Shown here piece after piece: positions 55,408 to 58,147 of a stretch of 64,000 nucleotides of DNA (position 1 is the stretch's first letter; each line of letters starts with the position of its first letter). The DNA comes from Spirulina sp. (GTDB lineage Bacteria > Cyanobacteriota > Cyanobacteriia > Phormidesmidales > Phormidesmidaceae), in the NCBI GenBank assembly GCA_044070495.1, contig JBIPSI010000012.1, positions 1 to 64,000 on the forward strand, given 5' to 3'. A model generated the notes under the pieces. The model was not told the origin of the DNA, searched no databases, and worked only from the letters and a program-made list of their open reading frames with translations. Both the position numbers and the translations under genes were made by a program.

Positions 55408-55614
55408 CTAAAAAAGCAAAATAAACGACCACGTAGCAAAAGACTGTGATCCCTTTAAGGCCAAGGAATTTTTCTCGTGAGCCCACGGGATACTGCTATC
55501 TCCACCACCGCTGATATGAGTTGATTCTTGATCAGTCAAATCGCGAATATAACTGCTGGAATGTTTTTGGAGAGCAGTGACATTATTAGATTTAGGCGTT
55601 TGTCGGGGTTGCAT
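55408..55614 (-). CDS. Double-Gly leader peptide P9
   Basis: IRDLTDQESTHISGG / GDSSIPWAHEK...; GGAGG RBS. Confidence 0.8.
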   Translation of the reverse strand: MQPRQTPKSNNVTALQKHSSSYIRDLTDQESTHISGGGDSSIPWAHEKNSLALKGSQSFATWSFILLF

Positions 55615-55645
55615 TATCTATTTCCTCCAGATATTGATTGGAATC

Positions 55646-55924
55646 TCACCAAAGCAACGTGCCTCGAATTACGCCACCTTTGTTGGCTTGTCTTAAGGGA
55701 CTCAATTCGGCTTGAAATTCTTCTCGAAGTCGAACATGTGGTGTTGTTGAATACTCCCTCCCACTATCTACTTGAGTAACAACCTTAGTAAAAGCGTCAA
55801 ACATACCGCCTCGGATGTCACCTTGAGTAGTTTCGGGCATTTCTTCCCAGAGATGGCTATTTTGGCTTTGCGGATGCTTGAAGTTTTGAGGTTTAATTAC
55901 CGAGTTTTTGCAGAAAAATTTCAT
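55646..55924 (-). CDS. Double-Gly leader peptide P8 (core starts like phycocyanin beta)
   Basis: LWEEMPETTQGDIRGG / MFDAFTKVVTQVDSGREY... Confidence 0.85.
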   Translation of the reverse strand: MKFFCKNSVIKPQNFKHPQSQNSHLWEEMPETTQGDIRGGMFDAFTKVVTQVDSGREYSTTPHVRLREEFQAELSPLRQANKGGVIRGTLLW

Positions 55925-56020
55925 CACTAACCATCCTTGACAAACTAGCAAATTCTCAGCCGAACAACTGAACTGCCGAGGAGTCCCTGAAGTCGTTTTT
56001 AAGGTTATGCGATCGCACGG

Positions 56021-56284
56021 CTACTGGATGAGATGGGTTAGCTCATGGGCAAGGAGATTGCGACCAACAGAAACTGTGCCACCTCTTCCAGGACCATCGG
56101 AGGGGAACCTGAAGCCCAGATCACTAACTTCAGGTAAGGTGGAAAACAGTAGGATAGTGCCTCGGATTTCCCCACCTGCGTAGGCTTGCATTTGGTCTTC
56201 TGTCAAGTCTGTGGTTCCAATGGCAGACAGCGGATCTAACGAATTTGGATGTTGTGAAATTGAGTTTCTGGTTTTCTTGAACAT
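56021..56284 (-). CDS. Double-Gly leader peptide P7 (PsaA FX-loop-like and DUF4157-like motifs)
   Basis: [13 protein letters not shown] / EIRGT...[15 protein letters not shown]...[20 protein letters not shown] RBS. Confidence 0.87.
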   Translation of the reverse strand: [87 protein letters not shown]

Positions 56285-56339
56285 GAATGACTCCTTATGT
56301 AATCACTTTTCGGCAAGATAATCCCGGAAAGTGTAGGTA

Positions 56340-56540
56340 TTAGCCTCCTCCGATGCCAAGACCAAGGCCAACAGCACCTTTGTTCTTGGTGGAAGACCGA
56401 TCTAATTCTGCTGTTATAAAAATCAAAGAAAGTGCAATTGTTGCACCTCCTTCAAGAGTTCTTGATTGCTCGTCATTTAATTCTTGAAAGAGAGCAGGAT
56501 TAATCTGGGTACGCTTGGACTTTTGATTGGAAGAATCCAT
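56340..56540 (-). CDS. Double-Gly leader peptide P6
   Basis: LFQELNDEQSRTLEGG / ATIALSL...; AGGAG RBS. Confidence 0.85.
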   Translation of the reverse strand: MDSSNQKSKRTQINPALFQELNDEQSRTLEGGATIALSLIFITAELDRSSTKNKGAVGLGLGIGGG

Positions 56541-56575
56541 TTTCCAATTCTCCTGAGGTTTAGTGATTTTCTGTT

Positions 56576-56854
56576 TTACTGCGGTCTTGGCATTGCAGAA
56601 ACAAAGGGCAGTCGGGTGAAGAAGGTTGGGGCTTCAGCGACAACCGCATCGCCACCAAGATCAAAGATAAGGCAATCAACAATAGAGCCACTAGGTTCGT
56701 CAAAGATAGCAGAGTTCTCTGAAGGTTGATTCAGCGCGAAGATCACAGCTTTGCTAACGCCGCCTGCTAAGGTTCCTGACTGTTCATCGGTCAGAGGTTG
56801 TAGCAAGTTGAGATTGATCTGGTTGAGATTGGGTTGTTGATTAGGAGAAATCAT
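56576..56854 (-). CDS. Double-Gly leader peptide P5 (Walker-B-like and DnaK-like motifs)
   Basis: LLQPLTDEQSGTLAGG / VSKAV...IFDEPSGS...LIFDLGG. Confidence 0.85.
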   Translation of the reverse strand: MISPNQQPNLNQINLNLLQPLTDEQSGTLAGGVSKAVIFALNQPSENSAIFDEPSGSIVDCLIFDLGGDAVVAEAPTFFTRLPFVSAMPRPQ

Positions 56855-56861
56855 TGAAGAA

Positions 56862-57047
56862 TTACCCTCCTATTCCTAATCTGCCAGACAAACTCGATGT
56901 GGCTTGTGCAGGAATATAGGCGAAGGGATTGGCAAAGAGCAGCGGCCCGCCACCCGATATGGACTGCGACTGACTACTATCAAGTGATTCCCATAATTGA
57001 CTGTTTTTGAATTGCGGCTTAGGTGGTTTAGGTGGGTAATATTTCAT
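56862..57047 (-). CDS. Double-Gly leader peptide P4
   Basis: [16 protein letters not shown] / GPLLFANPF...; GGAGG RBS. Confidence 0.85.
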   Translation of the reverse strand: [61 protein letters not shown]

Positions 57048-57118
57048 GGTTTTACCTCCATTAAACAAGCGTATTTATTTAGATTGGAACATGTCGGAAA
57101 TCGAGATATGGGAATATT

Positions 57119-57274
57119 TTACTCATACCCACCAACGTTTATATGGGGTTTGGTTGTTTCCCATCTAGTCTTTCCTCCAGCCGAAATAGTCTGTGACTGA
57201 TCTGTGTTTAGAGGTTGCCACAGTTGATCGTTTTGAAGTTGTAGCTTAGCTGATTTCGGTGAATGATGTTTCAT
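57119..57274 (-). CDS. Double-Gly-type leader peptide P3 (51 aa, not in the ORF track; EF-Tu-like core)
   Basis: My translation: MKHHSPKSAKLQLQNDQLWQPLNTDQSQTISAG / GKTRWETTKPHINVGGYE*. Confidence 0.85.
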   Translation of the reverse strand: MKHHSPKSAKLQLQNDQLWQPLNTDQSQTISAGGKTRWETTKPHINVGGYE

Positions 57275-57366
57275 GGTTTTGGCTCTATAGAACTATGTGA
57301 GTAGGCAGTGGTTAGTAAATGCTGCGAAGCCAACCATGATATTGGCTTCTTTTCGTTTTATGTAGT

Positions 57367-57564
57367 CTATGCCTGACGTCCTGGCCCATCACAGGGGAAT
57401 GATGAAAAGCCAAAATCTTTTTTGGGCGGTTCAGCACGAGCAAAAGGATTGGCAAATAGCAACACTCCACCTGAGATAGACTGTGACTGCTCTGGGGTGA
57501 GGGGCTGCCAAGGCGCAGCCTTTGAAGACTGAGCGTTAGTCGATTTGCGATGGTGATATTTCAT
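57367..57564 (-). CDS. Double-Gly leader peptide P2 (PsaB FX-loop-like motif)
   Basis: [16 protein letters not shown] / VLLFANPF...[18 protein letters not shown]. Confidence 0.87.
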   Translation of the reverse strand: [65 protein letters not shown]

Positions 57565-57597
57565 GATTTTGCCTCAATACAACAAAGACTTAGAGAG

Positions 57598-57679
57598 TAG
57601 ACCTCCTGCATAAATGCTTTTTAGGGGTCATGAGTCGTTGCGCGGCTCCGCCGCGCAACGATATCATGCAGGAAGTCTA
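57598..57679. mobile_element. MITE-like element with TA-flanked inverted ends and an internal hairpin
   Basis: TAGACCTCCTGCAT ... ATGCAGGAAGTCTA; internal TCGTTGCGCGG/CCGCGCAACGA stem. Confidence 0.7.
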
Positions 57680-57967
57680 GTGAGTATCAACCTCTAACTT
57701 GACTAGTTAGAGAGTGTTCAGAACCATGTCCTAGAGCCTCTGAACTCTCGTTTTAGAATTGGAGTCTCGACGAAATTCTTGCTCGGGAGTGTTCATGGTT
57801 TTGTGGGATAGCCGTCTCGGCTGTCCCCTTAGGAACAGGCCAGAGGCCCATCCCACAAGACCTTTAGGAGTTGGGCCTAATTTGTCTGTCAAAATTTACA
57901 CAAAAAACCGATCACTCTCCTTGTTCCCCATTCAGCTAGGTTCTCCCTGTTTCCGAACTACAACCAA

Positions 57968-58147
57968 TTACAATCCAGGGGGCAGCATGTCATAGCTATT
58001 CCAAATGGTGCATCCTTTTTCGGTGCAGACTGTTCTGAGATCAATCTTACGCCCACCATAAATTTTGGTACTTTGTTGATCGCTCAGTGGCGTTAACAGC
58101 ACATTATTGTTGATAGCTTGTGACCGATTAGGGGATATTAAGTTCAT
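57968..58147 (-). CDS. Double-Gly leader peptide P1 (59 aa, not in the ORF track)
   Basis: My translation: MNLISPNRSQAINNNVLLTPLSDQQSTKIYGG / RKIDLRTVCTEKGCTIWNSYDMLPPGL*; AAGGAGG RBS at about 58153-58159. Confidence 0.85.
   Translation of the reverse strand: MNLISPNRSQAINNNVLLTPLSDQQSTKIYGGRKIDLRTVCTEKGCTIWNSYDMLPPGL

Follow-up and report, generated by a model that had tools for sequence, protein, structure and literature searches.

The window analysed here, a stretch of 64,000 nucleotides (positions 1-64000 of contig C12) from the genome of a Spirulina sp. (5.31 Mb, 74 contigs, 56.7% G+C), carries at 55408-58147 an array of nine small minus-strand genes, arranged head to tail and named pep1 to pep9, that encode peptides with a common double-glycine (GG) leader. 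Judged by sequence comparison, the cores that follow these leaders are mosaics of segments copied from conserved cyanobacterial proteins, the donors in the window being PsaA, PsaB, CpcB, ATP synthase subunit c (ATP synthase c), EF-Tu and an OprB/SLH porin. Genes for an AraC-family regulator and a C39-peptidase ABC exporter lie divergently upstream of the array, and downstream of it, on the array strand, a subtilase gene is followed by one for an HlyD-family protein:

51168-52535, minus strand: HlyD-family membrane fusion protein (Pfam HlyD_3, HlyD_D23)
53432-55363, minus strand: PatA-type subtilisin (S8) of 643 amino acids with PatG_D and PatG_C (Pfam, TIGR03895)
55408-55614, minus strand: pep1, 68 amino acids
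55646-55924, minus strand: pep2, 92 amino acids from ATG
56021-56284, minus strand: pep3, 87 amino acids
56340-56540, minus strand: pep4, 66 amino acids
56576-56854, minus strand: pep5, 92 amino acids
56862-57047, minus strand: pep6, 61 amino acids
57119-57274, minus strand: pep7, 51 amino acids
57367-57564, minus strand: pep8, 65 amino acids
57968-58147, minus strand: pep9, 59 amino acids
58472-59371, plus strand: AraC-family regulator (Pfam), divergent from the array
59368-61515, plus strand: C39-peptidase ABC exporter (PCAT; Pfam)

Leaders and export genes of the array

All nine leaders end in Gly-Gly and have a hydrophobic residue (Leu or other) near position -12; Ile, Leu or Tyr occupies position -4 in eight of them, pep7 carries it at -5 before AGG, and the pep1 leader ends in ISGGG. 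A hidden Markov model (HMM) of the last 16 leader residues scored all nine peptides at 19.7-25.9 bits, and the next-best small open reading frame (ORF) among 101,556 six-frame small ORFs of the whole genome reached 10.2 bits; because the model was built from the nine peptides themselves, this means only that a tenth copy is absent. The original prediction, made from the letters of the window alone, had described nine co-oriented genes with a common double-glycine leader, and these stand, including the two short ones (pep7 and pep9) that it had placed below the cut-off of its ORF track. A Shine-Dalgarno-like motif is found by eye 5-10 bases 5' of most of the nine genes.

The same prediction had assigned a C39-peptidase ABC transporter and an HlyD protein to the locus, and Pfam matches at 59368-61515 and 51168-52535 bear this out. 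The exporter matches Peptidase_C39 (124 bits) as well as ABC_membrane and ABC_tran, and its translation contains the catalytic Cys (in DCGAACL) and His (in YHWVVL) of C39 peptidases; the HlyD protein reaches 182.6 bits with TIGR01843, under the cut-off of 208.65. As far as the translations tell, the export machinery looks intact. The NHLM_micro_ABC1 model scored 439.7 at the locus against a cut-off of 853, and, also as predicted, neither LanM/LanBC nor YcaO nor radical SAM enzymes were among the Pfam matches of ORFs of at least 150 amino acids at 49-64 kb. DNA contigs of three metagenome runs cover the array in part and at low depth.

Likeness of the cores to conserved proteins

We compared the cores with the genome's own six-frame ORFs of at least 80 amino acids using blastp-short, with 100 shuffles per core, and confirmed donor identities with Pfam. 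Four of the nine cores (pep2, pep3, pep6 and pep8) matched better than all of their 100 shuffles, and the PsaA, PsaB and CpcB resemblances named in the original prediction were recovered in pep3, pep8 and pep2, respectively, with 0/100 shuffles as good in each case. The pep3 core consists, in order, of EIRGTILLF (ATP synthase c), the Fx loop of PsaA with a Cys to Ser exchange, and a DUF4157/eCIS_core HExxH segment. Its match to the PsaA Fx-loop region extends over 14/16 identical residues (46.9 bits, E 2e-7), whereas the eCIS_core (DUF4157) model scored 18.1 bits (E 0.003) on the pep3 end, under its cut-off of 22. The pep8 core opens with VLLFANPF (ATP synthase c, 8/8) and continues with the PsaB Fx loop (44.8 bits, E 2.5e-7). 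With the Pfam model PsaA_PsaB, whose cut-off is 23.3, pep3 reached 24.2 bits and pep8 17.2, and NCBIfam separates the former as PsaA-like from the latter as PsaB-like.

The pep2 core opens with the N-terminus of CpcB, MFDAFTKVV (10/13 identical, 36.3 bits), continues with a porin coiled-coil, RLREEFQAELSPLR, that matches the linker of an OprB/SLH porin at 11/14 residues (E 8e-4), and ends in GGVIRGTLLW, an ATP synthase c motif. It also holds a second Gly-Gly (QANKGG / VIRGTLLW), cleavage at which would yield an 8-residue ATP synthase c-like peptide. The core of pep6 opens with PLLFANPF, from the C-terminus of ATP synthase c (LLFANPF, 7/7), and its end matches the C-terminus of an M50 peptidase (10/12, 30.8 bits, 0/100 shuffles). 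Motifs of ATP synthase c thus occur in pep2, pep3, pep6 and pep8, with IRGT(L/I)LL at the start of pep3 and at the end of pep2; like the porin coil of pep2, they had gone unnoticed before. The predicted mature peptides measure 17-60 amino acids and hold one to three segments of 7-19 amino acids each.

The pep1, pep4, pep5 and pep9 cores did not exceed their shuffles (86, 67, 80 and 21 of 100 as good). Two PsaB-like motifs, IPWAHEKNSLA and SFATWSFILLF, are nevertheless recognizable in pep1, where alone they are non-significant (86/100 and 47/60 shuffles as good); its orthologue in genome G063 (locus L081, 8085-8300) carries VIWAHEKTPLA, matches PsaB at 32.0 bits with 0/60 shuffles as good and contains two PsaB motifs, SEVQVIWAHEKTPLA...HGHLVWATTFIFV, which indicates that the weak PsaB match of pep1 is inherited. 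The pep7 core, KTRWETTKPHINVGGYE, resembles the N-terminus of EF-Tu. The earlier assignment of this donor is upheld insofar as EF-Tu is the top match and the orthologue in a second genome, G098, is nearer to EF-Tu than pep7 itself (31.2 bits, 3/100 shuffles), and weakened insofar as 14/100 shuffles equal the score of the window core. The PsaB donor of pep1 and the EF-Tu donor of pep7 are thus supported through orthologues only. It had also been proposed that cleavage recreates the natural N-terminus of the copied protein in two cases; this is exact for CpcB, with MFDAF right after GG, but offset by about two residues for EF-Tu in the window.

No donor was found for the core of pep4, 27/34 residues of which are identical in G098, and none, DnaK and Walker B included, is supported for that of pep5, which has no orthologue in G098. 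DnaK, one of the donors named earlier, ranked 19th for pep5 by Smith-Waterman alignment with a score under the shuffle maxima, and we rejected it. A soil metagenome contig (run X4; window 56577-56849) contains a pep5-like gene twice in tandem, the joint leading back 273 bases. The pep9 core has two Cys residues and a Rieske box I-like pattern (CTxxGC..WN) whose score is within noise; orthologues are present in G098 and G063, and PetC took ranks 1, 2 and 3 among some 21,500 ORFs for the three pep9 orthologues, with scores (47-48) that are again within noise. Sequence searches of the PDB with pep4 and pep9 returned nothing at E values up to 10.

For a natural control, the same scoring with 60 shuffles per core was applied to 39 cores from five array genomes and to 35 GG-type cores found at 16 further exporter loci, some of the 35 being probable false positives of the search pattern. 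Among the array cores 19/39 scored above all 60 shuffles and 16/39 had z of at least 4, compared to 3/35 and 1/35 of the control cores (Fisher p 2.5e-4 by the shuffle criterion and 6.7e-5 by the z criterion, both overstated because orthologues are not independent). Of the three control cores above all shuffles, one is glycine-rich and of low complexity, one matched a short frame without annotation and one is probably not a gene. Shuffled cores, then, do not match as well as real ones, and the Pfam model PsaA_PsaB exceeds its own cut-off on three peptides. Hydrophobic C-termini were not enriched (16/39 array cores versus 14/35 controls), and on these counts we rejected them as a shared PDZ-protease-ligand feature.

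Related arrays and constraint on the copied segments

In a search of 5.8 billion proteins, pep3 had only four homologues beyond the window copy and pep8 only two, in which the donor-like stretches are invariant (FPSDGPGR is unchanged in all four pep3 homologues). The closest relative of the array was reached via the subtilase and lies in G098 (locus L016), a metagenome-assembled Elainellales genome of a different family with the gene order of the window. Seven of its eight peptides are orthologous to window peptides, and 18 consecutive residues of its pep8 orthologue are identical to PsaB (61.7 bits, E 4e-13, 0/100 shuffles). Since pep2 was found in the window genome only among 61 related genomes, with 0/36 sampled genomes of the same genus positive, and since the array recurs in another family, the locus is patchy in distribution and probably mobile.

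Exporter orthologues among 121 cyanobacterial genomes were 91% identical in G098, 79% in G063 and G129, 71% in G089 and 69% in G086, with others more distant, and scanning 20 flanking stretches of exporter relatives for GG-leader ORFs revealed arrays of the same kind in G063, G129 and G086. In these homologous arrays next to C39 transporters the same donor motifs are conserved and reused, as the original prediction would have it; donor segments return in new combinations in G098, G063, G129, G086, G399 and G206. Further donors come in with the related arrays, namely ribosomal protein S10, thioredoxin, type IV pilin and the C-terminal end of the porin, and family assignment confirmed them (Ribosomal_S10, Thioredoxin, N_methyl/Pilin_GH and OprB/SLH proteins). 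Examples from G063, G129 and G086 include a core that ends at the stop codon with the 14-residue C-terminus of ATP synthase c, one that is a single 10-residue stretch, cores with a common 12-residue ending, a 20-residue PsaB stretch (Pfam PsaA_PsaB, 36.7 bits), the porin linker GLQRLQEEFGAELATLR (13/14) followed by the pilin helix AIALPSLLGQVNKAKQQ, the S10 N-terminus ANEKIRIKLKSFDHRLENDTS followed by the porin C-terminal strand YGAIRATFRF at the stop codon, and the thioredoxin segment IASQYGIHSIPTLMI at the stop codon. A third copy of the EF-Tu N-terminus, AKEQFIRHKPHVNAGSFL (opening AKEQFIRHKPHVNAGS), stands directly after GG in a peptide of G399.

Natural termini are often placed correspondingly in the peptides: the CpcB and EF-Tu N-terminal copies start right after GG or at most about two residues away and the S10 copy two residues in, the C-terminus of ATP synthase c forms the peptide end in G063, G086, G399, G129 and G206, and the porin C-terminus does so in 2/2 occurrences. 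A DNA pattern coding for LLFANPF, run on 401 cyanobacterial genomes, matched at least twice in 31, all of which we examined. The extra copy belongs to a GG-leader peptide in seven (the window genome, G098, G063, G086, G399, G129 and G206, from four families), to a second c-subunit gene in another seven, and to no such context in 17. An AraC homologue (40-81% identity) adjoins all five further arrays tested (L016, L081, L082, L084 and L129) and none (0/4) of the control loci tested.

Several observations were made along with these searches. Six cyanobacterial genomes (L138, L146, L150, L156, L159 and L166) have a second, divergent c-subunit gene ending in LILLFANPFW or MILLFANPFW plus a short tail; such genes may, we presume, belong to N-ATPase-type operons. 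Two cores of the G063 array (L081, 6461-6631 and 8623-8820) open with (A)LLLPAVQAARE, a stretch whose 9-mer occurs in G063 in those two genes only and is absent from four other genomes tested, and searching for the stretch in longer proteins gave no match; it may be a planctomycete pseudopilin-like (DUF1559) signature, which would mean a donor in another phylum. In the middle of the G086 array (L084, 14099-15070) lies a gene for 323 amino acids starting MASNVIYGTNGNDNLSGND, with the look of RTX-type repeats by eye.

The copies are under constraint. Between window and G098 orthologues, the ratio of nonsynonymous to synonymous substitution (dN/dS, Nei-Gojobori) is 0.24 for the cores and 0.40 for the leaders, with 191/233 core residues and 168/247 leader residues identical. 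Where pep7 and pep8 differ from their orthologues, one version usually equals the donor residue, indicating that the ancestral segments were near-exact. Fifteen peptide-donor comparisons within a genome comprised 187 identical residues, of which only 65 (0.35) use the same codon, compared to 0.60-0.67 of codons shared at identical residues of PsaB orthologues from different families; in the ATP synthase c copies (10-13 identical residues), codons agree at 1/13, 2/11 and 4/10. The 45 bases past the stop codons show no likeness to the donor genes. Given the codon mismatch and the unrelated bases after the stops, the copies are not recent DNA transfers from the host, and recent capture from the host genome was rejected on the codon comparison. 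A serine codon reads TCA in the peptide and AGC in the window genome's psaB, and the stretch with a TCN serine codon was found in 40 of 401 genomes, 39 of the matches being psaB-like and one the G098 peptide. The window genome has two psaA-psaB pairs (contigs C22 and C30) with identical Fx-loop regions. Over stretches of 10-18 residues the copies do not differ from the donor at all (100% identity), and amino-acid identity that persists beyond saturation of silent sites argues for strong purifying selection on the donor-like residues, whether they arose by ancient capture or by convergence. Selection, so read, keeps the copies identical to their originals.

The surroundings of the array comprise further features. 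The spacer between pep9 and pep8 (57570-57965, 400 bp) folds at -142.7 kcal/mol (z -4.3 versus shuffles) and contains a 31-nucleotide inverted repeat; it has no Rfam match and no DNA match in G098, whose equivalent spacer is about 190 bp, and may be a small inserted element. An Rfam scan of 52.4-58.6 kb returned no credible RNA family. Between protease and HlyD gene lies a 900-bp stretch (52536-53431) of 43-44% G+C that is unrelated to its counterpart in G098, where a beta-lactamase-family gene (L016, 10519-11910) occupies this place. Exopolysaccharide-type genes surround the array (43946-50957 and 62144-63996), among them a glycosyltransferase-EAL-receiver fusion (891 amino acids), DUF4114 and DUF218 genes, an exosortase EpsH homologue and more glycosyltransferases.

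Proposed mimicry, its rivals and known peptide systems

We propose that the array is an AraC-linked operon of double-glycine-leader peptides whose leaders would be cut after Gly-Gly and whose cores would be exported by the C39-ABC transporter with HlyD, in keeping with the established behaviour of such pairs. The exported cores would then stand in for the native segments and compete for whatever binds these, be it an assembly partner, a receptor or a protease, most likely in a setting of antagonism or manipulation of neighbouring cyanobacteria. Mimicry is suggested by the fact that selection holds the copies identical, and the tight constraint, the reuse of a few segments and the frequency of natural termini favour it; we hold it an evenly balanced question whether the cores act in this way, as molecular mimics outside the producer that compete for the partners of the native segments. 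The window had previously been described as encoding an exported library of conserved-epitope mimics, and of this description the mosaic cores from conserved segments survive, whereas the DnaK donor and the claim that no tailoring enzyme is present (see below) do not. The roles that it put forward (decoys, a false cell-lysis signal or dominant-negative inhibitors) are candidates. It is possible, though we advance it tentatively and with more doubt, that the peptides are an arsenal of interfering molecules in which the least mutable segments of competitors (the Fx loop of photosystem I, the helix and terminus of ATP synthase c, the N-termini of phycocyanin, EF-Tu and S10, thioredoxin, the pilin helix, and the coil and terminal strand of the porin) have been copied and would act as dominant-negative or decoy ligands.

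Several points weigh against mimicry. Cores without a detectable donor number 3/9 in the window (pep4, pep5 and pep9) and 20/39 across the five genomes. Since the donors mostly reside in the cytoplasm or the thylakoid, an extracellular peptide would need uptake, and a weapon against universally conserved proteins would endanger its producer too; a match to an immunity-like family was lacking among the ORFs of 51-61.5 kb, where small membrane types could escape detection. The producer's own variant is not followed either, since pep2 reads MFDAFTKVV where the window genome's CpcB has MFDAYTKVV and that of G098 MLDAFAKVV. A search for the locus among RNA runs listed none, and expression and export are predictions. 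Lastly, purifying selection means that the sequence matters and is no proof that mimicry is the reason.

A competing account, which we regard as rather unlikely, is that the parts were borrowed without any mimicry: pieces of highly expressed genes would have come to lie behind duplicated leaders and would now do another job, for instance as a membrane-active bacteriocin or an EbfG-like biofilm-matrix peptide. Capture biased by transcripts predicts abundant donors, and all donors are abundant; ATP synthase c, PsaB and pilin each contribute a hydrophobic helix, and exosortase and glycosyltransferase genes adjoin the array. The ancestors of pep7 and pep8 would have been near-exact fragments that then decayed in the window, where pep8 gained a residue and lost GGTC. 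The only tested GG peptides of cyanobacteria, EbfG1-4, act in biofilm formation (PMC4997328). Borrowing alone does not account for 10-18 residues that are 100% identical while silent sites are randomised (0.35), under a constraint far tighter than that on the leaders, nor for the reappearance of a handful of donor segments across lineages in varied combinations, the frequent retention of natural N- and C-termini and the copying of soluble loops as well, among them the Fx loop and the N-termini of EF-Tu and S10. That the likenesses are noise of short-query searches, or that the ORFs are not genes, is scarcely credible and already contradicted by the results. Such noise would fit the five of nine window cores that do not exceed shuffles on their own, the failure of DnaK and the PetC score of pep9 within noise, but not E values of 2e-7 in the window genome and 4e-13 for the G098 orthologue, three peptides above the PsaA_PsaB cut-off, conserved frames with dN/dS below 1 versus a second assembly, the same motifs in six further genomes, and natural control cores without such matches.

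The third alternative, a cyanobactin-like pathway in which intracellular cleavage by the PatA-type protease would turn the precursors into small linear peptides, the actual products, and GG export would be secondary, strikes us as improbable. It arises from the PatA/PatG-family protease encoded 45 bp downstream of pep1 on the same strand, an order kept in G098, which overturns the claim that the island lacks a tailoring enzyme. This protease scores 736.4 bits with TIGR03895 (PatA/PatG cyanobactin maturation; cut-off 421), and its best PDB matches are PagA/PatA at 310-320 bits, with PatG macrocyclase domains at 180-184 bits. Against such a pathway, the ORFs of 51-61.5 kb include no second S8/PatG-type protease or macrocyclase, heterocyclase or prenyltransferase, and the nine cores have no common recognition sequence or repeated flanking motif by eye. 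Among the arrays checked, the protease is present only in the window genome and G098, being absent from the arrays of the same kind at L081, L082, L084 and L129. Conversely, its relatives of 56-70% identity (L014, L015, L017-L019 and L025-L029) have no GG-peptide genes within 8 kb, and no GG-peptide arrays were found near protease relatives at nine other genome loci and 14 metagenome loci. A cyanobactin-like role may fit the window locus but cannot explain the protease-less arrays. In L014 and L018 at least, the protease relative is preceded just upstream by a gene for some 300 amino acids, the size of the window's AraC gene, and L014 also has a 35-amino-acid remnant of a C39 domain beside PIN-type genes.

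Among known systems, class II microcins and colicin V (CvaAB-type) are unmodified GG-leader peptides exported by PCAT and HlyD-type proteins and accompanied by dedicated immunity genes. The array has the same export layout in a Gram-negative envelope; it differs in that no immunity gene was recognised and in that its cores copy conserved proteins, whereas microcin cores are unlike their targets. Nif11- and nitrile-hydratase-related leader peptides, which are exported by C39-type transporters, take their leader from a single housekeeping protein family, whereas in the array it is the mature core that consists of short borrowed segments, with many proteins as their sources. Cyanobactin loci (PatA/PatG/PatE) share with the window a PatA-type protease with PatG_D and PatG_C next to precursor genes, but the array has no macrocyclase or heterocyclase, its precursors are not PatE-like, export is by a PCAT and the four arrays named above have no protease. 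Wang, Fewer and Sivonen (2011) described bacteriocin-type clusters of cyanobacterial GG precursors with highly diverse cores (PMC3140520). The array is like these in its small GG-leader genes served by C39-ABC and HlyD, several precursors per locus and little conservation of cores; the words 'photosystem', 'PatA' and 'subtilisin' are absent from the text of that paper, which mentions no resemblance of cores to conserved proteins (PMC3140520). The arrays studied here have mosaic cores of copied segments and are each accompanied by an AraC regulator. In Synechococcus elongatus PCC 7942, the four GG-motif proteins EbfG1-4 and the C39-peptidase transporter PteB function in biofilm formation, and this cyanobacterial GG-peptide array with its C39 transporter is the only such system known to have an experimental function (PMC4997328). 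A core at control locus L099 opens with the EbfG1 peptide reported in that paper (PMC4997328), next to an exporter 55% identical to that of the window, but EbfG-type loci (L097 and L099) have no leader-profile match of at least 8 bits and cores unrelated to those of the window, and the EbfG1-like core of L099 has no match to conserved proteins.

By its sequence, the array is a GG-leader/PCAT system and not a cyanobactin, lanthipeptide or nitrile-hydratase leader peptide (NHLP) cluster, nor is it EbfG-like. The GG-leader/PCAT kind is already known; new here are GG-leader cores that can be read as copies of segments of conserved proteins, of which we found no description in a literature search that extended to sources other than subscription journals. 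Clusters of GG peptides are common in cyanobacteria and almost unstudied, and their cores are usually called hypervariable and uninformative, whereas the cores described here are readable and point to their likely targets or models. Mimicry, if true, would provide a testable rule for how GG peptides act, would mean that designed interfering peptides have a precedent in nature, and would add a new kind of interaction between phototrophs. If the peptides are an arsenal, they would be a weapon that evolved from, and is held identical to, the target's own sequence, in the service of antagonism or deception. If the likeness is historical only, new secreted peptides would be built by in-frame reuse of pieces of conserved genes, and such pieces can stay unchanged for a very long time.

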